DNA from: a virus
Taxonomy: Duplodnaviria; Heunggongvirae; Uroviricota; Caudoviricetes
Reading direction: 5' to 3' (one strand)
Length of the DNA: 9,780 nt
Virus record (IMG/VR): IMGVR_UViG_2700989535_000004
Span: 1 to 9,780 of that record
A program made the position numbers and the translations under genes. This document shows positions 1-9,780 of this stretch, piece by piece; positions within the stretch are counted from its first letter, which is position 1, and every line of letters begins with the position of its first letter. Under the pieces are notes generated by a model that saw nothing but the letters and a program-made list of their open reading frames with translations, ran no database searches and was not told the DNA's origin.

Positions 1-564
1 TCAACGACTGCGCTTAGCGTGGCGCTCCCAGTTTTCTTGCTTCGCCTGCGCCGTTTTACGTAGTGCGACGTAACACGCCCCGCTGCCGCCATGATGCGGT
101 AGCGCAGTGCAATATGCCTGAACATCATCAAATTCGGTCAGCCAGCGCGCCACATAGCTGCGGACAATATTGGCATGCGATTTATCATCCCGTCCTTTGC
201 CATGAATAATCAGCACGTTACGCAAACCATCAGCCATGGCTTGTTGAATGAAACTGAACATCATTTTGCGGCACTCTTCCACCGGCTGGCGCAAAAGATT
301 CAGGCTCGCCTGTTGCGGATATTTACCACTGCGCAGCTTATCCAGCACCCCATGTTGCAACCCTTCCCGCCGAAACTCCAGCGGCTGACTTAGTGGGATG
401 ATGTCGAGAAATCCGGTGGTGAGGAAATTATCAAGCTGCAGCGTGTCGATACGCTGCGGCGCACGTTGGTTACGCGTTGGATGCCAGTGGACATCGGTAG
501 CACGTTTCAGCGGCTGGACATCTTCCATGGCGTCAAGAAACAGCGATTTGTCGTCAAGGTTCAT
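1..564 (-). CDS. smrA: Smr-domain protein (SmrA/YdaL-like putative DNA endonuclease); host gene flanking the island
   Basis: Complete 187-aa ORF on the minus strand with stop at 1-3. Smr-type core motif (..NVLIIHGKGRDDKS..). The 187-aa length and the MNLDDKSLFLDAMEDV N-terminus match my recollection of E. coli SmrA rather than SmrB; not verified by search. Confidence 0.7.
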   Translation of the reverse strand: MNLDDKSLFLDAMEDVQPLKRATDVHWHPTRNQRAPQRIDTLQLDNFLTTGFLDIIPLSQPLEFRREGLQHGVLDKLRSGKYPQQASLNLLRQPVEECRKMMFSFIQQAMADGLRNVLIIHGKGRDDKSHANIVRSYVARWLTEFDDVQAYCTALPHHGGSGACYVALRKTAQAKQENWERHAKRSR

Positions 565-782
565 GTTACATCCTCCCGCAATTAAGAGCGCGATATGATA
601 ACCAGACCGGGTCGGTCCAACAACGTATTACCCAAAATTCCAGTAATAAGTTCCAAATATTGCCGATATTTTAAGCAAAATGCTTATGCATGATTATTCA
701 TTCACGATATTTATAATTAAATGCGCATAACTTATTGAATTTAACCAACAAACATCGCTGCAAATAACGTTAAAAATCGCAA

Positions 783-806
783 ATTAACTACACCATTAAC
801 TACACC
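783..806. repeat. Perfect tandem direct repeat, 2 x 12 bp (ATTAACTACACC)
   Basis: Read directly: attaactacacc at 783-794 and again at 795-806, in the AT-rich intergenic region upstream of the Smr gene. Confidence 0.9.
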
Positions 807-1296
807 GTTCGGTGCACTGTATGCAACAATGCGGAACAAATAGACACAAGCGACGGGCTATACCGTTATCATTTTCCGGCTATCCGCCATGAAGCTGGTG
901 GATGATCACGGATAAACCGTTATGGAAGTCCCCATATCGGCATCATGCCCACCAGCGAGATTAGTTATCTGGTTGCTGATGGGAGGCTGACGAACCTCGA
1001 TGCTAGGGTGCGCAAAACTAGTGAGACCTTTTTTCTCTGCAACAGGCCCATAATTCGCGTTTTCTTTGTCTGCCGTAAGGTGGGGGATTTTTGGCGGATC
1101 CAGCAATGGCGCGGATTTTGTGATTTTTTATAGATAGACCTCATCTATCAATCCCGTGCACACCTTCCCAAAAAAAGTTTTCGAACCTGCGGCGATGTGA
1201 ACAAGGGTAGGCGGGCGGTCCCATAAGCAATGAGGTGTAGGGATTTCTATCCCCCTGGGGGTATTAAACACCACCCGATTTAAATACCGTCTTTTT

Positions 1297-1332
1297 TGTC
1301 ACTGTGTGTCACTCTCCGTCACGGTATGTCAC
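1297..1332. repeat. Four (T/C)GTCAC motifs at exact 10-bp phasing; candidate protein-binding array at the left island edge
   Basis: tgtcac at 1297-1302, tgtcac at 1307-1312, cgtcac at 1317-1322, tgtcac at 1327-1332. The array lies immediately downstream of the last island ORF (stop at 1339). Confidence 0.8.
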
Positions 1333-1338
1333 CACAAG

Positions 1339-1620
1339 TTAACGTCGTAACCGTTCCGGCTTCTTCCAGTGGTAAGTAATTTTTTCTTTCTCTTGGTACA
1401 TCTGCACGCGGCGACGGTACGACAACATCTCCAGAACTCTGGTGCGTATGTTGCGCATATCCACGCCGTTAAGCTCGATACCGTCACGGCGCATCACCTC
1501 AGCAACAACACGCACATAATTTTCAGCGGTCACGCTGTCCGGCTGCGTGGCCTGTTCGTCAGCCTGCTGGCTGATTCCGGTAACGCGGCGGATTAATCGC
1601 AGTATTTCGGCTTCTGTCAT
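1339..1620 (-). CDS. Hypothetical protein (93 aa), last gene of the packaging operon
   Basis: ATG at 1618-1620 preceded by TGGGGGCACA (G-rich SD, 4-nt spacer); 73-bp gap after the Nu1-like gene. No recognisable similarity to lambda gpA, gpW or gpFII. Confidence 0.5.
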   Translation of the reverse strand: MTEAEILRLIRRVTGISQQADEQATQPDSVTAENYVRVVAEVMRRDGIELNGVDMRNIRTRVLEMLSYRRRVQMYQEKEKITYHWKKPERLRR

Positions 1621-1693
1621 TGTGCCCCCATCGCTCTGATAGCCTGGTGTCGTCAGGTCCTTCCTGGAATTATGGCCCGTTACGGGGCGGCGG

Positions 1694-2236
1694 TTACTCG
1701 CCTTTGTTCTGTAGCAACTTCTCAGGCGCGCTTCCGGTAGTTTCCATCAGGTAATCAGCCAGTATCTGTGGCAGGTTTTCGTCAAGTCTTGCACATGCGT
1801 TACATGCTTTGGCTATTTCCCTTTTTAGTTCATCCAGCATATACGGCCTTATATCGGGAAAGCGCCTTTGCATTGTGAGCGGGAGGCTGTCCATGATTGA
1901 TGAAATCTGACTCGCTAGTTTTGAAATCGCGTAGATGCAAAACTTTGTATCAATCACCTCGCCGCGTTCGCGCTCGTTTTTAAGTTCCTGCGCTTCCGCC
2001 TGGGCCGTCATTAATCTGATTCTTACGCGTAAAAGTTCATCATCATCAATCTCGCCTTTGTCGTTTGTAAGCTGGTTAATTGCATTGTTAACCCTATTGT
2101 CTATCACGCTAGCAACATCATAAAACGCCTCACGGCCTTTACGCTCAACGGGAGTTACTCCCCACTTGTCGAACGCTGTCGCACTTACGCGGCAGCTTTG
2201 CGCCATAGTTTTTTTGTTCATCAGGTGCGATTTCAT
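1694..2236 (-). CDS. Terminase small subunit, lambda Nu1 family
   Basis: Translation aligns along its length with lambda Nu1 as recalled (e.g. RLMTAQAEAQELKNERERGEVIDTKFCIYAISKLASQISSIMDSLPLTMQRRFP vs lambda RLTRAQADAQELKNARDSAEVVETAFCTFVLSRIAGEIASILDGLPLSVQRRFP). About 180 aa like Nu1. Start taken at ATG 2234-2236 (SD GTGGGGA, 5-nt spacer); ATG 2219-2221 (MNKK.., aligning with lambda MEVNKK) and GTG 2246-2248 are alternatives. Sits 134 bp downstream of cosN. Confidence 0.85.
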   Translation of the reverse strand: MKSHLMNKKTMAQSCRVSATAFDKWGVTPVERKGREAFYDVASVIDNRVNNAINQLTNDKGEIDDDELLRVRIRLMTAQAEAQELKNERERGEVIDTKFCIYAISKLASQISSIMDSLPLTMQRRFPDIRPYMLDELKREIAKACNACARLDENLPQILADYLMETTGSAPEKLLQNKGE

Positions 2237-2261
2237 CAATATCCCCACTTAGTTAAGGTTT

Positions 2262-2420
2262 CAGGTTGGTGTGTTGGTGTTATCTTTCCCTTTTTATTCA
2301 TAGAGATAGAGCGAAAAACAAAACCACCACCACCAACCCGAAAAGGCTCATAAATAGCGAAAATCCGCAAGGTCGCCGCCCCGTAGCCTGCCGGATCGCC
2401 GGAAAGGACCCGCCAGCCAG
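2262..2420 (-). other. Lambda-type cos site: cosQ-like flank (2382-2420), cosN (2370-2381) and a divergent cosB-like region (2262-2369)
   Basis: The minus strand reads CTGGCTGGCGGGTCCTTTCCGGCGATCCGGCAGGCTACG|GGGCGGCGACCT|TGCGGATTTTCGCTATTTATGA. The 12-nt block is the lambda cohesive end, and both flanks match the lambda right-end and left-end sequences as I recall them with only a few substitutions. After TATTTATGA the sequence diverges; the cosB-like region carries GGTTGGTGTGTTGGTG (2265-2280) and its inverted partner CCACCACCACCAACC (2324-2338) around an AT-rich core. Confidence 0.8.
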
Positions 2421-2437
2421 AACGGGCCCTAATTTCA

Positions 2438-2821
2438 TCAACCAATCAGCTTATAGCGACCATCCCGTGCATTGCGACGTACACGCTCAATCTTGAGGCA
2501 TAGCGCCGCATCTGGCTTTTTGGGGACAGGTACGCGGCAATATTCAGAAGCTCGAGGAATATTGTTTATCCAGTCGATCACTTCACTTAAATACCAGGCT
2601 TTACGCCCTTCCGTAACCTGTACGCGTTCGGGGAACTCTCCACGAGCCTCAAGGTTTAGCAATGTGCGACGGCTAAGGGTAGTAAGTTCCATCACCTGAT
2701 TCATATCAACAAGGCGTTCACTTAAACGCATTTTGTCAGCAATAGCCTTTAATTCCTCTACTGCTGGATCCGGATACATCATTTCGGCAATTGGCTTAAG
2801 GTCATTGTAATGATTCTGCAT
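2438..2821 (-). CDS. AlpA/Xis-family (HTH_17-like) DNA-binding protein, 127 aa
   Basis: ATG at 2819-2821 with SD AAGGGGGA (4-nt spacer). Central segment MELTTLSRRTLLNLEARGEFPERVQVTEGRKAWYLSEVIDWI has the AlpA/excisionase-type HTH pattern, with about 40 extra residues at the N-terminus and about 40 at the C-terminus. The stop lies directly next to cosQ. Confidence 0.6.
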   Translation of the reverse strand: MQNHYNDLKPIAEMMYPDPAVEELKAIADKMRLSERLVDMNQVMELTTLSRRTLLNLEARGEFPERVQVTEGRKAWYLSEVIDWINNIPRASEYCRVPVPKKPDAALCLKIERVRRNARDGRYKLIG

Positions 2822-2832
2822 TGTATCCCCCT

Positions 2833-3174
2833 TTACACACGAGCCAGCGGCTGAACAGAAATACCTGAGCCAACAAACGCGGCAACCTTTGCCGACAGTT
2901 CTCTTACAGACTCAGGCCAGTTCAGAGCATCAACATTTAAAACACCTGTCTTATAAACCTGTGCCTGTGTTTTTTTCGCTGTGTCGATTTGTACAGCGGA
3001 AACATAAACCGCTTTGCCTGCGCTCGTTCCATCCCATACCACTAGCGCACCAGTTGCATCTTCCTGCATCAGTGGCGTAAACGCAGGTATTACCCCTTTA
3101 TTGGCTGAAAATATCCCCAGCGTAGTAACCAGTGCTTCAGTGCCAGACATGAGTTCAGTGTAATGAGTAGCCAT
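2833..3174 (-). CDS. Head decoration protein, lambda gpD family
   Basis: 113 aa. Shares with lambda gpD as recalled: TPLM, LV(V/A)WDGT, YK(T/S)G, WPE and AF(V/A)G(S/T)(G/A)IS in the same order and spacing. ATG at 3172-3174 with SD AAGGGGGAG; starts 9 nt after the capsid gene stop. Confidence 0.85.
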   Translation of the reverse strand: MATHYTELMSGTEALVTTLGIFSANKGVIPAFTPLMQEDATGALVVWDGTSAGKAVYVSAVQIDTAKKTQAQVYKTGVLNVDALNWPESVRELSAKVAAFVGSGISVQPLARV

Positions 3175-3183
3175 TGCTCCCCC

Positions 3184-4230
3184 TTAGCCAATGCGAACGG
3201 TAACAAAACGATTGATGCGGGCCGGTATTGGCTGTGGTGCAGAGTGCGTTTGTACGTACTCAATAGCCGGATCACCAGGCACAATATAGTTTTTCGGTGC
3301 AAGTTCGGCTTTAGTCAGCCCCATTCGGGTTAGCTCCGGATCCTGAATACCGCCATAGGCGACAATCCCCTGAAGAGCCGTATTGCCAAGCACCATCAAA
3401 TCAGGATCAAGGAAATGTTTTTCAGTTCCGTCCTCGTCGGTATAACGTCCGCTGTAAACAACAATCGCAACATCGCCCATATACCCTTTAAAACTCACCG
3501 AATCACCAAGGTCTTTAAGGGCCGTTTCCAGTTCGGAATTAGAACCACGGCGGGTATCCAGAGCCTCTTTTATCGCTCTGAATGAACGGTATTTCTTCCA
3601 TACATTACCGCCCATAATGATGATATTAGTGACGCCCTCACTAAATTCTGCGTAGCTCTCAATATCATCATTTGGATCAAAAGTTTCTTTATCCTTACCT
3701 GACCACTCAGCACCGCCAGACTGCGTGATAATATTTTGTGGTTTTATATTCCAGTCCAGTTCATAACGTTCAATACCATCGCCCTCAATGATATTTTTCC
3801 CCGTTGTGATTGCCTGAACAGCAAGCCATTCAATACGTGCACGTATAGCTTTAGCCTGATTTACAATCGCCTGTTTAACTTTAATATTACGCGCCCCAAA
3901 AGCATTGTATTGTTCAGGTGATACACCAGCAGGGCGCACAGCTAACTTATTTGGATCAATGCTGCTTTTCGGTTTCATATAGCCAGGGCGAATTGTTTTT
4001 GATTCGTATCCCTCATCTCGTGAAACTTTACTGCCCACCATAGGAGAGCAAAACGCCGCGATCGGGATATTTGGATCGTCGATCGTATCAAGAATAATGT
4101 CTCTCGATTCAAACATTACCGAGCGAGTGAAAAACAAACTGGTAAACAACGCATTTAATTTTTTTTGCACATCTTCAGCATTAGCCATCTGCACAAGCTG
4201 TGTAGGCGAATATAAATCAACCATACTCAT
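3184..4230 (-). CDS. Major capsid protein, lambda gpE family
   Basis: Strong colinear similarity to lambda gpE as recalled (ITQSGGAEWSGKDKETFDPNDDIESYA.., DTRRGSNSELETALKDLG, GDVAIVVYSG, MVLGNT, with an MSM start like gpE). 348 aa from ATG 4228-4230 (SD AAAGAGG directly upstream); ATG 4222-4224 has better SD spacing. The six-frame ORF runs on to 4311 but that extension has no gpE counterpart. Confidence 0.9.
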   Translation of the reverse strand: MSMVDLYSPTQLVQMANAEDVQKKLNALFTSLFFTRSVMFESRDIILDTIDDPNIPIAAFCSPMVGSKVSRDEGYESKTIRPGYMKPKSSIDPNKLAVRPAGVSPEQYNAFGARNIKVKQAIVNQAKAIRARIEWLAVQAITTGKNIIEGDGIERYELDWNIKPQNIITQSGGAEWSGKDKETFDPNDDIESYAEFSEGVTNIIIMGGNVWKKYRSFRAIKEALDTRRGSNSELETALKDLGDSVSFKGYMGDVAIVVYSGRYTDEDGTEKHFLDPDLMVLGNTALQGIVAYGGIQDPELTRMGLTKAELAPKNYIVPGDPAIEYVQTHSAPQPIPARINRFVTVRIG

Positions 4231-4393
4231 CCTCTTTACATTCATTACAAATAATTGTGAATATATTCTATTACCGATGTCTGCTATGCGAATACATGCA
4301 ACCAAGTGCAATGTTGTATAAAATATGCCGTGACAACTTCAGTGCTGATAATTCGTGTTAATGTATTTACTTCCTTTGGTCGGGATTTATGTA

Positions 4394-4435
4394 GCATGCC
4401 GGAAAATCTATTTTTTTCCGGCATCTTTTTGTTTG
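4394..4435 (+). terminator. Stem-loop (11-bp stem) with a T-tract on the plus strand; terminator-like element between the SSB and capsid genes
   Basis: ATGCCGGAAAA (4396-4406) pairs with TTTTCCGGCAT (4414-4424), followed by CTTTTTGTTTG. The U-tract geometry is on the plus strand; on the coding minus strand the hairpin is preceded by an A-tract instead. Lies 16 bp beyond the SSB stop. Confidence 0.4.
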
Positions 4436-4441
4436 CAGAAT

Positions 4442-4864
4442 TTAAAACGGTATATTATCGCCGTACGGATCATCATTCCCCGACTGTTGTTTTGCCCTGT
4501 TCAGTGCGTCAGTGGCCTGCCCCTGCTGACCTTTTTTGCCGCCCGGTCGCGCCGTTCGCGCACTGATTACGCTGTCTGCGATAACCTGCCAGCCCCGCCG
4601 CGTTTCGCCGTTCTGGCCTGTCCACTGGCTTACCTGCATGTTACCCGCCACGCTCAGGAGTTCACCCTTGCGGTGCTTTGCCAGTGCTTCGGCCTGTCTG
4701 CCAAACGCCAGGACGGATAACCACATCGTCGCCGTTCCGTCATCTGCCTGGCTGCACGGAAGTGGGACCGCCATACTCGCCATCGTCATTTGTGTACCCT
4801 TGCTGGTGGTCTTTAACTGCGGGTCAGCCACCAGCCGCCCGTAAGCCGCTATCTGTGCTGTCAT
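4442..4864 (-). CDS. ssb: Single-stranded DNA-binding protein (SSB)
   Basis: 140 aa with an OB-fold-like N-terminal region (IAAYGRLVADPQ.., WLSVLAFGRQAEALAKHRKGELLSVAGNMQVSQWTGQNGETRRGWQVIADSV), a Gly/Gln-rich linker and an acidic tail ending DNIPF (compare SSB DDDIPF). Its ATG (4862-4864) overlaps the upstream stop as ATGA. Confidence 0.85.
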   Translation of the reverse strand: MTAQIAAYGRLVADPQLKTTSKGTQMTMASMAVPLPCSQADDGTATMWLSVLAFGRQAEALAKHRKGELLSVAGNMQVSQWTGQNGETRRGWQVIADSVISARTARPGGKKGQQGQATDALNRAKQQSGNDDPYGDNIPF

Positions 4865-5112
4865 GCTGTCTGCTCTCCGGTTTTAACGTTGATGGTTGTC
4901 ACCTGTTCCGCTTCGGCAATCTCCCGTTCTGTCAGTGTGGCAAAATTTGCCGCCGCCGTGGTCATGAATGCGCTTATCAGTTCGGGATGCGCTTTCGCGT
5001 ATCCTTCTCCGGCGTGGCGGTCTATCGTTCTGATTGCCACCTTTAAGGCGTGCTCTGTCATGTCTAATGCGCGATATTTTGGTGCTGTTTTATCTCTGCT
5101 TTTTCTGGTCAT
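4861..5112 (-). CDS. Hypothetical protein (83 aa), translationally coupled to ssb
   Basis: ATG at 5110-5112 directly abutting the iteron region; G-rich sequence upstream; stop overlaps the ssb start. No family recognised. Confidence 0.5.
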   Translation of the reverse strand: MTRKSRDKTAPKYRALDMTEHALKVAIRTIDRHAGEGYAKAHPELISAFMTTAAANFATLTEREIAEAEQVTTINVKTGEQTA

Positions 5113-5113
5113 T

Positions 5114-5316
5114 CCCCACTACCCCCCACTTTTTCGCCTCACTTTTTAAGCTCCCCACATGATTTCCAACCTTGTTTTTTTGTGATTCTAATATGTTGTT
5201 TTTCAATGTGTTTTTTATTCCTCACTTTTGAGCCTATATACAGATTGAAAAGTGAGGGGCGCGGTTGCTTTTTGTTCAGTTCCTGCTATCCCCTCACTTT
5301 TGCGCCTCACTTTTTA
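5114..5316. repeat. Iteron array flanking an AT-rich core: putative replication origin
   Basis: CC(C/T)CACTTTT(T) copies at 5124-5134, 5137-5147, 5219-5229, 5292-5301 and 5304-5315; partial copies at 5114-5120 and 5153-5160; one inverted copy (AAAAGTGAGGGG, 5247-5258). A T-rich core lies at 5161-5217. The array starts at the stop codon of the replicase gene. Confidence 0.65.
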
Positions 5317-6729
5317 CAGTGGGCGCACATCATCACCGTCAATAGCGATAACGCCGTCTCTTTCCAGCTTGTACAGCCAGCGCCGGAAGTTTTTCATCTC
5401 ATACCCCAGCTTTTTCATATCATCGCGCAACAACGGGATAGTGCATTTATCGCCGCGCTGTGTGCGTGACCGGATACAGCCCCATAGTGCGGCGTGATTC
5501 TCCGTCTTGTTTCCGGCCTCCTCGATGCGCTCCAGTTCAACGGGTGGGCGCGGCTTATCCACAACCACCAGCGACGTGATTAACTCCTTGTCAGCGTCGG
5601 TAAAAAGCTCCACCACACGTAAATCATATGCAGCCTCTTTCAGTTCCTCCGCGTCCTTCATTTTGGTGCAGGAGATAACCAGGGCCTCACTGTCCGCGCC
5701 TTCGCGGCGGATCCGGTACTCAGCGTCCAGAGATGCACGAAATGCACTGGAACCACGCGCCCCTTTTGTTTCATCCTTGCCGGAATGGTGAACCACCAGC
5801 ACCGTGGCCCCTGTGCGTCGTTTCAGTTCGTCACATCCACGGATAAACGCCCCCATATCCCGCGCGTCATTTTCATCATTACCGCCAAAGCAACGCGCCA
5901 GCGTATCCAGAATAATCATGCGTACCGGTTTACCCGTTTCCCGTTCAACCTGGCGGGATGCGATAACCATTTCATCAACATCAAACTGGGCTGCAGGAAA
6001 AATCGGGCGGGTTACCAGGTACAGATTTTTCACCCGTTCATCATTAACGATTTCCCATGCCTTGATACGGCGGGGGACACCAATGCCACCTTCACCGACA
6101 ACATACATCACCGAACCATGCGCCACCCTGCGACCTCCCCAGTGGCGACCCGTGGCAACATGACACGCCCAGGAACACGCGAGGAACGATTTATAGGAAC
6201 CGCTCGCGCCGTATGTGCTGCACAATGAATTAGCCGGAATCACGCCCTTAACGACATAATCAAGCTGTGTGTCGTACCCTGCAGATCCAATGCTCATTGG
6301 TAGCGTGGTTTTTCGCTGACTGTATTGCTCGTCAGTAAGTATTTCCCCGCGCTCTGCCTGTTCGCGGATCCGTTGCAGGTAGTCGTGCCAGTTCTCCAGC
6401 TTCTGACTGTGCATTCCCTCAGGGTAATAATTCGCATCCCGTACACCTGCCGCCGCCAGCTTTTGCCCGATGGCATTAATATTTGACGGCTTGATGTGGC
6501 CTGCCTTGTACAGTCGGACACAATAGCGACCATCGTCGATAATTTTCAGGCCTGCCAGTTCGTCAAGCTGGCTGTCTCCCAGCCATACAGGCGGAACATT
6601 GTCGCCAGCAAGTCGCCCGTCCTGCTCCTGCCATTGTTTCGCGTGCGCCCAGGCATCACTACCCGCAAAAATAATGACTTCGGTCATTTTGTCGTAAGGC
6701 TGTTTTTTTAAGTTCGGTGCGCTTTTCAT
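5314..6729 (-). CDS. Replication initiator, primase/helicase type, with RepA-like AAA_25 ATPase core
   Basis: 471 aa. Walker A-like GASGSYKSFLA (Tyr where Gly is usual), Walker B-like RMIILDT and a VLVVHHSGKDE motif typical of RepA/AAA_25 helicases. The N-terminal 170 aa may be a degenerate Toprim (EVIIFAGSDAW..LKIIDDG) and the C-terminal 100 aa a DNA-binding domain. ATG at 6727-6729 (SD AGGGG, 6-nt spacer) overlaps the upstream stop as ATGA. Confidence 0.8.
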   Translation of the reverse strand: MKSAPNLKKQPYDKMTEVIIFAGSDAWAHAKQWQEQDGRLAGDNVPPVWLGDSQLDELAGLKIIDDGRYCVRLYKAGHIKPSNINAIGQKLAAAGVRDANYYPEGMHSQKLENWHDYLQRIREQAERGEILTDEQYSQRKTTLPMSIGSAGYDTQLDYVVKGVIPANSLCSTYGASGSYKSFLACSWACHVATGRHWGGRRVAHGSVMYVVGEGGIGVPRRIKAWEIVNDERVKNLYLVTRPIFPAAQFDVDEMVIASRQVERETGKPVRMIILDTLARCFGGNDENDARDMGAFIRGCDELKRRTGATVLVVHHSGKDETKGARGSSAFRASLDAEYRIRREGADSEALVISCTKMKDAEELKEAAYDLRVVELFTDADKELITSLVVVDKPRPPVELERIEEAGNKTENHAALWGCIRSRTQRGDKCTIPLLRDDMKKLGYEMKNFRRWLYKLERDGVIAIDGDDVRPL

Positions 6730-7025
6730 TTCTTGCCCCTGAATCCGTTAATCATGGTTTTCAGCTTCTGGATGTTTGCCCGTGCCCTGGCGTTGCTGGT
6801 GGGCACGTTATGCGGCGCGGTCTGTACCAGAGAAAAATCACACCGGAACTGATAAACAGGCATCACGCAATCATATTCGTAACCTTCACGGCGGTAGATT
6901 ACGCGCCGTTCTTCCACGCCCTTAATCATTACCGTGCCGCCGTACTGGTCGCGGTAAATATCACCGCGCGTAAATTTAGGGTGAGTGTTGCCACTGGCAG
7001 TTAAGCCAGAATATTTAAGTTTCAT
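6726..7025 (-). CDS. Hypothetical protein (99 aa)
   Basis: ATG at 7023-7025 with SD GGAGA upstream; stop overlaps the replicase start. Tight operon context; no family recognised. Confidence 0.5.
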   Translation of the reverse strand: MKLKYSGLTASGNTHPKFTRGDIYRDQYGGTVMIKGVEERRVIYRREGYEYDCVMPVYQFRCDFSLVQTAPHNVPTSNARARANIQKLKTMINGFRGKK

Positions 7026-7030
7026 TATTT

Positions 7031-7264
7031 TTATTCTCCGGTGTGCTGTTCTTTATATCTGTCGTGCAATAGATCTATTTCTTGCAGTTCCATTATTACA
7101 GGCTCAAGAAGCGTTATTAATGCCGTGGCAATTCTTGATTTTTGTTTGTCGCATTCATTGTCGCCAAGTGTTTCAAGCCATATGCGCAATATTTCCAGCA
7201 TGTTTTCACTGTGAGAAAGTGCAAGAAATGCGCGGTCTATTGTTTCGTGGTAAATATCACGCAT
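7031..7264 (-). CDS. Hypothetical protein (77 aa)
   Basis: ATG at 7262-7264 with SD GAGGA (about 8-nt spacer); 5-nt gap to the next gene. No family recognised. Confidence 0.45.
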   Translation of the reverse strand: MRDIYHETIDRAFLALSHSENMLEILRIWLETLGDNECDKQKSRIATALITLLEPVIMELQEIDLLHDRYKEQHTGE

Positions 7265-7490
7265 GGCTTACATCCTCAGGAAATTTTCTTCTGTAACGCG
7301 CCTCTGCCACATATTCCGCATAATCGGCGGCGATATTCAGTACATCAAGCCCCGTTGATTTATATTCTCTCGTGGAAAGTAAGAAAAAAGCCGCTCTAAT
7401 AAGCTCTGGCATTGACGAAAGCGCATCAGCCGCATCATCAGGAACGCCGGAAAATTCCTGTTTCAGGGAATTAAAACGATCATCACGCAT
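7257..7490 (-). CDS. Hypothetical protein (77 aa); possibly the C-terminal half of a frameshifted gene
   Basis: ATG at 7488-7490 lies 2 nt downstream of a G9 tract on the coding strand, which could serve as a G-rich SD. The frame is closed 6 codons upstream of the ATG. See finding on the homopolymer. Confidence 0.4.
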   Translation of the reverse strand: MRDDRFNSLKQEFSGVPDDAADALSSMPELIRAAFFLLSTREYKSTGLDVLNIAADYAEYVAEARYRRKFPEDVSHA

Positions 7491-7723
7491 AACCCCCCCC
7501 CATTTTCACAATCAGCAATCAGGATGGCTTTGGCCTCATTCAGCGCCATATCCGCACTAAGTTGCATAACCGCCAGCGAATGAGGAACGAAAGCCCCGGC
7601 ATATTCTGTTTCACTGGTAGCGTGCTTATGCGCCCTGTCCGCGATAACAGAAATATCAATCAGCGCATCAATCAGTGTTTTGATTGCTTCGGCGGCTGCG
7701 TCCGGACGGGTGTTATTGCACAT
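7463..7723 (-). CDS. Hypothetical protein (86 aa); possibly the N-terminal half of a frameshifted gene
   Basis: ATG at 7721-7723 with SD AGGGGGT (5-nt spacer). The reading frame passes through the G9 tract (encoding GGG) and stops 28 nt later, overlapping the next ORF. Confidence 0.4.
   Translation of the reverse strand: MCNNTRPDAAAEAIKTLIDALIDISVIADRAHKHATSETEYAGAFVPHSLAVMQLSADMALNEAKAILIADCENGGGLCVMIVLIP
7493..7501 (-). repeat. Homopolymeric tract: C9 on the plus strand, G9 on the coding strand
   Basis: Read directly (aaCCCCCCCCCatttt). Sits exactly at the junction of two overlapping out-of-frame ORFs. Confidence 0.95.
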
Positions 7724-7919
7724 GGTGCACCCCCTGACGAATACGGGCGGCGAATACCATCACGCAGCCAGCCGGTGATTGCTGACGGGCTTCCTGTTCG
7801 CTGGTGGCCTCAATGGTAATCACGCGCGGTTGTGCCGTACTCAGGGCGATAAAACGCCAGATGTATTTATTCAGGTTGTGCGAGTCCCGCCCTTGCGGGT
7901 GTATGGTATGATTTCTCAT
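7713..7919 (-). CDS. Hypothetical protein (68 aa), first gene of the minus-strand operon
   Basis: ATG at 7917-7919 with SD GAGG (5-nt spacer). The six-frame ORF extends to a TTG at 8009, but that extension would cover the leader hairpin and has no RBS. Confidence 0.4.
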   Translation of the reverse strand: MRNHTIHPQGRDSHNLNKYIWRFIALSTAQPRVITIEATSEQEARQQSPAGCVMVFAARIRQGVHHVQ

Positions 7920-8017
7920 AGCAGCCTCGATAATCTTGCTATCGTTGGTGGTTAGACGCCCCGTATGTGTTTCCGGCACTGCGGGGCGTTGCTCTTTGTA
8001 TTTCAACAATTCTTTTG

Positions 8018-8096
8018 GTGTGTTTCATGTTATGAGCGCATGAAACACACGTCAAGGCTTTTTGTATTTCTTTTTTTGTGTATACTGAAACACACC
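8018..8096. promoter_or_regulatory. Divergent promoter/operator region: perfect 12-bp inverted repeat overlapping a minus-strand sigma70-like promoter, plus a third half-site at the plus-strand promoter
   Basis: GTGTGTTTCATG (8018-8029), 9-bp spacer, CATGAAACACAC (8039-8050). Minus-strand promoter: -35 TTGACG (revcomp of 8050-8055), 17-bp spacer, -10 TAACAT (revcomp of 8027-8032). Third half-site TGAAACACAC at 8086-8095 just downstream of a plus-strand -10-like TATACT (8081-8086). A fourth GTGTTTC lies at 7967-7973 inside a leader hairpin (ACGCCCCG 7956-7963 / CGGGGCGT 7982-7989). Confidence 0.5.
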
Positions 8097-8116
8097 GATG
8101 ATTAGGAGTTTCAGAA

Positions 8117-8422
8117 ATGGCAACGGCTAACAAAAACGCAAAATCACAACTGACAACTGTCAGAGTCCCACTAGATGTTATGCAAGGGATGGAATCCGTT
8201 AAGCTGGACGGCGAAAGCAATGCCGGATTTATCGTAACCGCCATGCGCGGAGAAATAGCCCGCCGCCAAGCAGAAGGCAGCGGAGAAAATCCCCTTGTGT
8301 CGTCACTGGATGCCCTGGCTAAGGTCGAACAAATCGGCATCAAAGCAGCGGAAGAAATCGGGCAGCTTGTCACCGTTGCACGCGAAGAACTCCAGCGTCG
8401 CAAGACCAAAGAACCAGAGTAA
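8117..8422 (+). CDS. Putative ribbon-helix-helix (RHH) DNA-binding protein, 101 aa; candidate island repressor
   Basis: Strong SD (TAGGAG, 8-nt spacer). N-terminal segment QLTTVRVPLDVMQGMESVKLDGESNAGFIVTAMRGEIARR fits a beta-strand/helix/helix RHH pattern. Operator-like repeats lie just upstream and an intrinsic terminator downstream on the same strand. Composition is A/E/K-rich, unlike the Ser/Arg/Cys-rich opposite-strand reading. Confidence 0.6.
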   Translation: MATANKNAKSQLTTVRVPLDVMQGMESVKLDGESNAGFIVTAMRGEIARRQAEGSGENPLVSSLDALAKVEQIGIKAAEEIGQLVTVAREELQRRKTKEPE

Positions 8423-8479
8423 TCACCATCAGCGCCGTGGTGTAAGGTATTACGGCGCATTGCTATGCAGGACAACACA

Positions 8480-8653
8480 ATGACCGATAAAGAATTGACC
8501 AAAACATTATCACCGGCACGGAAAAGACGGCGCAGAAAGATAGAGCATGAATCAGAAAGATTCGCGCCATGTGCTTTTGCTCTTGAGAAATTCCTTAAAG
8601 AGCACAGGAAAAAGCTCTCGTTGCAAACCTTGGAACGAACCAAATCTGACTGA
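8480..8653 (+). CDS. Small basic protein (57 aa), co-transcribed with the RHH gene
   Basis: ATG at 8480 with AGGA 7 nt upstream; the ORF-track start at 8465 has no SD. Contains an RKRRRRK block. Followed 80 bp later by an intrinsic terminator. Confidence 0.4.
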   Translation: MTDKELTKTLSPARKRRRRKIEHESERFAPCAFALEKFLKEHRKKLSLQTLERTKSD

Positions 8654-8732
8654 TCACATTGCCCACCAGCCGCAAATGTGGCATTGTTGGTGATGCTCAT
8701 GCGTTGGGGATAACGTGTAGCTTGTGTCGAGG

Positions 8733-8761
8733 GGCCACCGTAGCGGGTGGCCTTTGTTTTG
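8733..8761 (+). terminator. Rho-independent terminator of the plus-strand cassette
   Basis: GGCCACC (8733-8739), loop gtagcg, GGTGGCC (8746-8752), then TTTGTTTTG. The U-tract is on the plus strand only. Confidence 0.6.
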
Positions 8762-8763
8762 CC

Positions 8764-9129
8764 TGTTATCCGGCAATTGTGGCGCTTCGCCACACGGTTG
8801 ATATAATCCCACTGCTCAGATTCATTTTTTGCGCAGTAGGTTAATTGTTCACAAAGGCGCTCCGGCAACGGGGCGCTTTTTGTTTTTATTAGTTTGTAGA
8901 AACCTGACTCAGAGATAATGCTCATATTCTGATTGCCGTCAGGGGTGTAAGTTAAATTTACTCCCTTTTTATCATCAAACATCTGCAACGCTCTGGCGTT
9001 AACAATATTGGTTTCACTCCCTCCAGTAAGGCCGGAAATAACCGGAATAATTTCGGCAAAATTTTGCAGATTCTGTTTTTCAGGACGAACGAAGCCCCGC
9101 CCTTGTTCGGGAGAATATCCAGTATTCAT
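8764..9129 (-). CDS. Hypothetical protein with a possible Bro-N-like motif; 3' boundary undefined, possibly a truncated remnant
   Basis: ATG at 9127-9129 with only a weak SD. The segment PDGNQNMSIISESGFYKLIKTKSAP resembles the Bro-N core (GGKQ.MT.INESGLYSLI..S.KP), but the N-terminal Bro-N signature is not evident. The ORF formally continues without a stop to 7939, across the plus-strand terminator, cassette and promoter region; I list only the 5' part, ended at an arbitrary in-frame position. Confidence 0.3.
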
Positions 9130-9181
9130 GGTTAGATCTCTGTATTAGTGGATGGGTGGCGGCTGTGTGCCGCCAGCCTGA

Positions 9182-9370
9182 TTAGTGAACTGCCTCGCAG
9201 CTTTCCTTCCATGCCAGAACTTCGGATAAAGACCAGCCAACGGAACGACCGCCGAGCTTACGCCGTGATGGGAATTGTCCGGTTTTTTCCAGGCGGTACC
9301 GACATGAACGGCTCAGGCCTGTAAGTTGCTGACATTCTTTTTCACGTATAAAGCGATCTGTGCTTAACAC
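9182..9370 (-). CDS. alpA: AlpA-family transcriptional regulator / excision-associated HTH protein (62 aa)
   Basis: DRFIREKECQQLTGLSRSCRYRLEKTGQFPSRRKLGGRSVGWSLSEVLAWKE matches the AlpA/Vis-type HTH. Start taken at GTG 9368-9370, preceded by SD AAGGGGGA (3-nt spacer); the 118-aa ORF-track start at 9538 has no comparable RBS. Confidence 0.75.
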   Translation of the reverse strand: MLSTDRFIREKECQQLTGLSRSCRYRLEKTGQFPSRRKLGGRSVGWSLSEVLAWKESCEAVH

Positions 9371-9403
9371 AATTCCCCCTTTGATATTTCTTAAAGAGTT
9401 ATT

Positions 9404-9450
9404 TGGTGTCCTATTGTGTTGTGGTGCGTCGGATTGTGTCAGGGTGTTTA
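9404..9450. repeat. Five (T/G)GTGT(C/T)-type motifs at 10-bp phasing upstream of alpA
   Basis: TGGTGTC 9404-9410, TTGTGTT 9414-9420, GGTGCGTC 9423-9430, TTGTGTC 9434-9440, GGTGTTT 9444-9450. Confidence 0.7.
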
Positions 9451-9664
9451 TGGAATGGCAAACACTGGCGGCGGTCATTTTACAGAAGTGTGGTAATGAG
9501 AATAAAAACTCTTTTAATTCATTGTGGTGCAAAGGCATAAAATTCTGTTTTTACGCCTTTTTTACATGTTTTTAAGAGTGATTCGCCAATGTACAAAAAG
9601 CCAGTAAAACGACTGAAAATCAACTTTTTAGGGTGTCAGTCAGATGTTAATCAAGTTTGTTCCA

Positions 9665-9715
9665 GATTGTTCGCCGTTGTTCGTCGTGGTGTCTCGTTGT
9701 TTCACGTTGTGTCAG
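9665..9715. repeat. Five tandem 10-bp units ending in (C)GTTGT, with TTGTGTCAG
   Basis: Motifs (G/C)(A/G)T(T/G)GT at 9665, 9675, 9685, 9695 and 9705. The 9-mer TTGTGTCAG occurs at 9707-9715 and at 9434-9442; GGTGTCAG at 9632-9639. Confidence 0.7.
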
Positions 9716-9780
9716 TTCTAAAAAATCGCAAAAAAAATTATATTTCTCTGGCTATTGGCAGTGTGGTTACGTTTTTGTGA

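Follow-up and report, generated by a model that had tools for sequence, protein, structure and literature searches.

What recognizes the short, helically phased repeats that lie between the integrase gene and alpA in a phage-inducible chromosomal island (PICI)? To answer this, we analyzed the window, a 9,780-nucleotide stretch of DNA (IMG/VR record IMGVR_UViG_2700989535_000004, positions 1 to 9,780), which is a PICI of the EcCICFT073 type from Escherichia coli with its genes on the minus strand. Its gene content matches that of EcCICFT073, the prototype Gram-negative PICI, which we located within NC_004431, and the AlpA proteins of the two islands differ at 2 of 62 residues. The alpA gene (9182-9370, minus strand; PF05930, E 2.7e-18) has a GTG start and the Shine-Dalgarno sequence AGGGGG and encodes a 62-aa protein, the predicted binder of the repeats. 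The 3' end of the tyrosine integrase gene int occupies 9738-9780 on the same strand, with its stop codon TAA at 9740-9738; the rest lies past the window end, and identical DNA in RefSeq E. coli genomes is annotated with an int of 1230 bp in the same orientation as alpA. Both repeat clusters sit inside the 367-bp int-alpA spacer (9371-9737), which has a G+C content of 38%. The initial annotation had placed them upstream of alpA on the integrase side, and this is borne out, since they are directly downstream of the int stop codon. We infer that both clusters serve as operators for the AlpA that the island itself encodes, which would act as both an excision factor and a regulator; we hold this to be probable, though by no means assured.

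The stronger of the two is the distal array, cluster 2 (9657-9716), which reads on the plus strand, antisense to int and alpA, and begins 22 bp past the int stop. It consists of six units at exact 10-bp steps from 9657 (TTGTTCCAGA, TTGTTCGCCG, TTGTTCGTCG, TGGTGTCTCG, TTGTTTCACG and TTGTGTCAGT) that share the core TTGT(T/G)(T/C)(C/G), and Tandem Repeats Finder reports a period of 10 there. This chain of six T[TG]GT compares with a maximum of three in 5000 dinucleotide shuffles of the 367-bp spacer (0/5000 above three). Over the whole spacer, T[TG]GT[TG] matches 13 times on the plus strand and 0 times on the minus strand.

The proximal array, cluster 1 (9404-9443), has the same orientation as cluster 2 and is identified from its phasing and from relatives. 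Its in-phase units stand at 9404 (TGGTGTC), 9414 (TTGTGTT) and 9434 (TTGTGTC); the slot at 9424 is degenerate (GTGCGTC), and copies at 9419 and 9422 are off phase. Taken alone, cluster 1 is only marginally unusual, with its density matched in 59/3000 shuffles and three of four phased slots in 15/3000. In relatives, the cluster 1 columns read TTGGGT, TTGTGTC and TTGTGTC, in phase. The initial annotation described two clusters of five phased copies each, which holds for cluster 2, where the array is in fact stronger at six exact units, but not for cluster 1, where only three copies are in phase. It was correct that an exact 9-mer occurs in both clusters: TTGTGTCAG is found at 9434 and 9707, 273 bp apart. 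We do not count this 9-mer as evidence, since a repeated 9-mer in 367 bp is not rare and the copy at 9707 is not conserved in relatives.

Conservation gives a firmer basis for the arrays. Across ten E. coli islands whose spacers are 71-100% identical, TTGT is kept at 10-bp steps while the intervening bases change. A wider alignment comprised 51 distinct upstream sequences (50 from IMG/VR and one from a Shigella genome, plus the window's own) with 62-100% identity to the window. In this alignment, mean column entropy in cluster 2 is 0.28, 0.25, 0.29, 0.19 and 0.40 at unit positions 1-5 and 0.89, 0.60, 0.76, 0.68 and 0.67 at positions 6-10, against a spacer average of 0.53. Because the alignment was not conditioned on the motif, the pattern is independent evidence for selection on the phased core. 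Judged from these sequences, the TTGT(T) core is under periodic purifying selection, with the bases between the cores free to vary. A lack of conservation in related islands had been named, together with a failure of AlpA and integrase to bind, as what would refute the proposed role of the repeats; the core is conserved in the ten islands and in the 51 distinct sequences alike.

Length variants keep the same phase. The IMG/VR contig L064 carries an exact 10-bp insertion, GCAACAATGA, in the array after int and so has one unit more, which indicates that unit number changes by whole helical turns. EDL933-type relatives carry an exact 10-bp deletion in cluster 1, again one unit's length. The arrays are the same across islands with RepA helicase, DUF927 or primase-type replication modules.

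To place the spacer arrays in the context of whole elements, we scanned five islands of 13-17 kb each for T[TG]GT repeated three or more times at 10-11-bp steps. In the window island, L013 and EcCICFT073, the scan gave three locations and no others: after int, the P arm and the P' arm. Four units make up the array of the P arm, which lies 60-90 bp upstream of the int ATG, past the window end. The P' arm array (820-849, minus strand; TTGTGTCTAT TTGTTCCGCA TTGTTGCATA) has three units at 10-bp steps ~105-135 bp inside the island end and is also present in L012, L013 and EcCICFT073; in L014, the scan detected the post-int and P arm arrays, and no P' arm array. The motif lies on the sense strand in the arms and on the antisense strand in the spacer. 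By this reading of the sequence, there are four arrays in the island, and EcCICFT073 has likewise four. A position weight matrix (PWM) scan revealed no further clusters in this island; given the low information content of the motif, isolated matches are frequent throughout, so only clusters are meaningful.

Each arm array (four units in P, three in P') stands 5-13 bp from a second motif, a 12-bp doublet of GGTGTAGTTAAT x2. The P' arm doublet is at 783-806 (minus strand), and an identical 26-mer containing GGTGTAGTTAAT x2 occurs at L011 5360-5385, 22 bp upstream of the int ATG and past the window. In every island checked, the doublet is confined to the two att arms, and its copies lie ~85 and ~148 bp from the att core. 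The island is inserted between abgR and smrA. One copy of the core, TCACGATATTTATAAT (702-717, no strand assigned), marks the island/chromosome junction beside smrA, where homology to island-free genomes ends at window position 720; TCACGATATT(A/T)ATAAT is present at both junctions, with the other copy upstream of int beside abgR. By comparison among islands and with phage P4, the GGTGTAGTTAAT doublet is likely an integrase arm-type site.

One relative carries an array at a further kind of location. L012, the EDL933-type capsid-forming PICI (cf-PICI) of O157:H7 strain ATCC 35150, has the three usual arrays plus one more at 8310-8350. This extra array is a three-unit TTGTTC chain (TTGTTCGTGG TTGTTCCACG TTGTTCACTG) that comes straight after a terminator. 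It overlaps a -35-like hexamer, from which TATTTT is 16 bp away, and the major capsid gene is ~210 bp farther downstream. Its placement suggests that the array-binding protein may also control the capsid operon in this element. The window island has no equivalent capsid-promoter array, and a search of its spacer for plus-strand promoters that the arrays might drive in the manner of the L012 late promoter found only poor -10 candidates (TAAAAA). Farther afield, of the three AlpA loci given by a genome-contig scan, the two distant ones (Geobacter and an alphaproteobacterial metagenome-assembled genome) had no comparable arrays.

These distributions bear on whether the repeats are protein sites at all. 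They could instead be a relic of slippage or duplication, iterons for replication, or promoter-like hexamers that overlap. The 10-bp steps in which units are gained and lost show that an array can expand by slippage, the unit GACACAAT holds both -35-like and -10-like hexamers, and in P4 a set of 10-bp repeats named 'ori type 2' stands upstream of vis. We consider such an origin very unlikely, given that the core is conserved periodically, with variable spacers, among sequences sharing only 62-100% identity, and that the motif forms arrays at four functionally sensible places and nowhere else. For iterons in particular, a place beside the rep gene or ori and variation linked to the initiator would be expected, and the motif is instead independent of replication-module type; the PICI origin has also been mapped downstream of rep (PMC6092414).

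If the arrays are protein sites, AlpA is the candidate that best accounts for where they stand. The AF2 model of the window AlpA (pLDDT 90) has as its best PDB match the GIsul2 excisionase 8c3t (TM 0.79-0.85, 39% identity), and its other fold matches include RdfS, TorI (1z4h) and Pukovnik Xis. AlpA thus models as a winged helix of the excisionase, or recombination directionality factor (RDF), type. Direct repeats of 10-11 bp are the general targets of RDFs, and for Apl, Cox and Vis these targets lie in att as well as in promoter regions (PMC7498355). Several features of an RDF operator array are found here: head-to-tail repeats at one helical turn, at least three units, copies in the att arms beside arm-type sites, and a cognate winged-helix RDF. 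As to unit number, the arrays have 3-6 adjacent units, except that cluster 1 of the window has two adjacent and one past the degenerate slot; relatives have three adjacent. Several units read TTGTTCG, comparable to the GTTCG sites of TorI. In EcCICFT073, AlpA alone activates a PalpA fusion and not Pint, and AlpA overexpression leads to int-dependent excision and replication (PMC6092414). We favor AlpA as the binder because arrays stand at the alpA promoter and at both island ends, the protein has an excisionase fold, and the units are TorI-like. The initial annotation had proposed cooperative binding of phased sites by a small AlpA/Xis-like helix-turn-helix protein, or else integrase arm sites; the comparative evidence favors the former and disfavors the latter.

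The integrase nevertheless has to be weighed. Under that explanation, the P4-like integrase would recognize the TTGT units as arm-type sites through its N-terminal domain. Int would then have additional sites in the spacer, perhaps for autoregulation or as a sink, and the RDF would bind the doublets. Arrays in both att arms are normal for Int arm sites, their tandem arrangement is like that of lambda P'1-P'3, P4 Int represses its own promoter, and the motif is kept in the P arm of cspD-type islands although their AlpA has diverged. The arm copies of the TTGT motif do lie within the roughly 50-200 bp from the core that is typical of arm sites. The spacer, however, is ~1.3 kb from the att core, with clusters 1 and 2 at ~1.3-1.7 kb and the whole int gene between, and TTGT arrays are not confined to att but stand also at the alpA promoter and at the L012 capsid-operon promoter. 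It is the GGTGTAGTTAAT doublets that are arm-confined and that match the annotated P4 arm repeats in position and format. Because the arms hold this second motif with the P4 arm-repeat layout, the TTGT arrays are left for the RDF. The activation of PalpA by AlpA alone in EcCICFT073 (PMC6092414) and the resemblance of the units to TorI GTTCG sites point the same way, and we regard integrase binding to the TTGT units as unlikely.

Several observations weigh against AlpA as the binder. In the sets examined, int is inherited together with alpA in every case, and covariation of sequences therefore gives no means of telling the two proteins apart as binders. RDF sites usually occupy one att arm, and here arrays are present in both. 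The location of cluster 1 at -17 to +23 is odd for an activator, and AlpA left Pint unchanged in EcCICFT073 despite the P arm array upstream of int (PMC6092414). In the cspD-site islands L018 and L019, which have a diverged AlpA, nothing has changed in the P arm module, and a GTTCG-like core is all that is left of the alpA-proximal array; at 3110-3140, just after the int stop and a terminator-like hairpin, the post-int position carries AATATC x3 at 10-bp steps on the sense strand in place of TTGT units. Finally, the motif is of low information content, with single matches common island-wide.

How the spacer arrays might act depends on where alpA transcription starts. A promoter scan gave a candidate alpA promoter at 9433-9462 (minus strand), with -35 TTGCCA at 9461-9456, a 17-bp spacer, TG at 9441-9440 and -10 CACAAT at 9438-9433. 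This TTGCCA-17-TGnCACAAT is of the extended -10 type, with a predicted start near 9426. TTTGCCA (9462-9456, sense strand) is present in all variant types aligned, and the 10-bp deletion of the EDL933 type recreates TTGCCA-17-AACAAT out of the next unit. Because the scan found the pair, TTTGCCA is invariant and the deletion recreates the promoter, we take TTGCCA-17-TGnCACAAT as the best candidate for PalpA. A second CACAAT (9418-9413) was considered as a sigma-dependent pause element or second promoter and set aside, as it is unconserved and reads CCCAAT in relatives. Relative to the predicted start, cluster 1 spans ~ -17 to +23, with the -10 hexamer inside the 9434 unit, and cluster 2 lies at ~ -231 to -290. 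The initial annotation had read the location as fitting control of int expression or excision. Since int is upstream and ends 22 bp before cluster 2, the clusters flank and overlap the alpA promoter and not Pint, and that suggestion is not supported for them; a part in excision or at Pint could instead fall to the separate copies in the P arm and the P' arm (820-849).

The overlap of a cluster 1 unit with the spacer and -10 of candidate PalpA raises a different possibility, in which AlpA would act as a Q-like antiterminator, loading onto RNA polymerase from this unit and letting the polymerase pass hairpins downstream, with cluster 2 accessory or unrelated. Pseudomonas aeruginosa AlpA, a processive antiterminator of the same Pfam family, recognizes an element located between -35 and -10 and allows a terminator farther downstream to be bypassed (PMC7969949), and one cluster 1 unit is likewise placed. 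Past the stop codon of alpA there is a strong GC hairpin (-17.3 kcal/mol, z -3.8). We judge this mode improbable here. The P. aeruginosa element is a single bipartite GGGACGN5GGTA, which acts via RNA polymerase and the downstream terminator and has no att function, whereas here we see a multi-unit phased array without resemblance to it, and the att-arm arrays would be left unexplained. The hairpin after alpA lacks a U tract, the possible pause element at the second CACAAT is unconserved, and there is no terminator between PalpA and alpA, the conserved hairpin of the spacer being upstream of the candidate promoter.

That conserved hairpin (9531-9560, minus strand) lies between the two arrays and has a 12-bp stem (-13 kcal/mol, z -3.8) with compensatory stem variants in relatives (GGCGTAAA/TTTACGCC and GGCAT/ATGCC). 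It folds better as minus-strand RNA, where a G.U pair replaces the A.C mismatch of the plus strand, and its U tract is weak on the sense strand (UUUG), the opposite strand carrying a T6 run. As far as fold and covariation indicate, it is probably either an insulator or the terminator of int, the latter being the simplest reading. No conserved sigma-70-like pair was found upstream of it, by eye or by promoter scan; a promoter there would have made room for an antitermination model. The consensus for integration host factor (IHF) is WATCAR-N4-TTR, and a site that reads like it, AATCAACTTTTTA (9618-9630, plus strand), lies between cluster 2 and the hairpin. Within this candidate site, AAAATCA is invariant and the spacing to TTR is held in 9/10 relatives, with N4 varying. 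Rfam covariance models gave no match at E <= 1 on either strand of 9150-9780.

Together, these elements suggest how AlpA might work. AlpA monomers would bind TTGT(T/G)YC units cooperatively, head to tail and one helical turn apart. At the att arms, where the arrays stand beside the probable integrase arm doublets, AlpA would bend DNA and drive excision. In the spacer, the two arrays would bracket the alpA promoter, cluster 2 upstream and cluster 1 over the -10 hexamer and the first ~20 transcribed bases, with the IHF-like site and the putative int terminator hairpin between cluster 2 and the promoter. A helper phage would trigger some alpA transcription, after which AlpA occupancy of both spacer arrays would set an autoregulatory loop; positive autoregulation of alpA has been reported for EcCICFT073 (PMC6092414). 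The position of cluster 1 suggests a repressor or modulator site that modulates or represses at high occupancy, and cluster 2 with its IHF-like site suggests an upstream activating or looping element.

The first step of this scheme leaves room for a helper protein at the same sites. Some or all of the arrays may be targets of a Xis/Cox-type protein of the helper phage, the inducer that first turns on alpA, although we think this quite unlikely. In its specific form, to which we give equally little weight, an excisionase-type phage protein such as lambda Xis, produced when the prophage is induced, would cross-bind the PalpA arrays and fire the first alpA transcripts, and AlpA would then take over the same sites. 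The P arm of lambda attP contains TATGTTGTGTTTT, the Xis X2 site, and two units of the spacer (9433-9440 and 9706-9713) have GTTGTGT in common with it. Helper phages raise alpA transcription (PMC6092414), and in EcCIMP1 induction is still seen when alpA is deleted. Yet the link to Xis is one of resemblance to a motif of low information content, and helpers of different types (lambda, phi80 and Kapi1) induce related islands. If it were true, satellite induction would be wired to the helper's excision machinery via a shared RDF-site grammar, and the inducer of Gram-negative PICIs would be identified.

Operator arrays for AlpA itself would matter because AlpA is the master switch of Gram-negative PICIs, capsid-forming ones included. 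In the accessible literature, AlpA is described as an activator and/or an excisionase, and we found no paper mapping AlpA sites in PICIs. A site map bears on three questions from published work: which of two roles, transcription factor and excisionase, AlpA plays or whether it combines them, what its DNA sites are, and by what means helper phages turn AlpA on. That one motif occurs at the att arms, around the alpA promoter and at the EDL933-type late promoter argues for one protein doing both jobs, comparable to Apl, Cox and Vis. The arrays also offer bait DNA for the phage inducer and sites to mutate in engineering PICIs as delivery vehicles. The arrays seem to belong to a well-known class of element, and their map in a PICI appears to be new; this is an annotation-level advance in a well-understood class and not a new mechanism.

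Elsewhere in the window, Pfam identifies minus-strand genes for an AAA_25/RepA-type helicase (5314-6729), SSB, a lambda-E-type capsid protein, a head-decoration protein and a Nu1-type small terminase. Between the head-decoration and Nu1-type genes stands a second AlpA-domain gene (2438-2821, minus strand; 127 aa, PF05930, E 1.4e-8). Directly downstream of alpA is a 396-aa open reading frame (ORF; 7939-9129, minus strand) without a Pfam match, whose later part is rich in serine, leucine and arginine and not protein-like in composition; a YlcI/YnfO-family gene (8117-8422, plus strand) overlaps it in antisense. In one genome the annotation of identical or near-identical DNA gives a 470-aa 'Icd-like' protein, and in another there is no annotation. 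The ORF is probably a remnant, because relatives carry an AntA/AntB antirepressor gene in its place. Set between alpA and the genes that follow it, the GC-rich hairpin directly after the alpA stop (9155-9178, minus strand) may act as an attenuator or in RNA stability.

Among known systems, the HE-PICI attP provides a parallel for the neighbor of the arm arrays. It contains a doubled motif, tgTGTATTGCa x2, as co-oriented tandem doublets 81 and 132 bp from the core (PMC10111431), much as GGTGTAGTTAAT x2 stands ~85 and 148 bp either side of the core here. The same paper did not find its motif in other PICIs and describes no 10-bp phased TTGT arrays (PMC10111431), so the HE-PICI doublet corresponds to the arm neighbor of the TTGT arrays and not to the arrays themselves.

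P4 shares the layout of the att arms. Vis, the AlpA homolog of P4 according to Fillol-Salom et al. (PMC6092414), is an AlpA-family excisionase and regulator, and the integrase of the window island is P4-like. In the P4 genome, 12-bp doublets annotated as 'attP arm sequence repeat' lie just upstream of int and past the core. Next to the int-proximal one are three phased (A/T)TCCG units, where the island has its four-unit array. By analogy, the doublets would be Int arm sites and the phased units those of the directionality factor. The motifs themselves differ (TTGGGGGCAT doublets and TCCG units in P4), vis is far from int, and the correspondence with Vis is one of layout alone. P4 (L020) also has 'ori type 2' repeats, three of 10 bp (CCACTTAAAG type), upstream of vis; these and the phased (A/T)TCCG units, at 3973-4000 and 9176-9205, differ from each other in motif.

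TorI of prophage KplE1 offers a parallel in the sites themselves. It binds GTTCG, GATCG and GTCCG, one block of three sites 2 nt apart giving a 10-bp period, and in attL the int promoter is overlapped by these sites (PMC2951348). Here, TTGTTCG occurs in several units, and the cspD-type relatives keep GTTCG. TorI differs in that its sites are known in attL only, it represses intS, and no promoter-distal autoregulatory arrays have been described for it; the protein is also only distantly similar to the window AlpA (foldseek TM about 0.6).

In overall organization, close counterparts are Apl of coliphage 186 and Cox of P2 and HP1, which are dual recombination directionality factors and transcriptional regulators. 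Each is a small helix-turn-helix protein that recognizes direct repeats 10-11 bp apart, both at att and at a far promoter, and Apl needs at least three adjacent units, binds cooperatively and bends DNA (PMC7498355). Apl and Cox belong to another protein family and repress face-to-face lytic and lysogenic promoters, whereas AlpA is reported to activate its own promoter, and the island has arrays in both att arms and in the opposite orientation at the promoter. The arrays described here nonetheless resemble those of Apl and Cox in having 3-6 units, in their 10-bp spacing and in their location at both att and a promoter.

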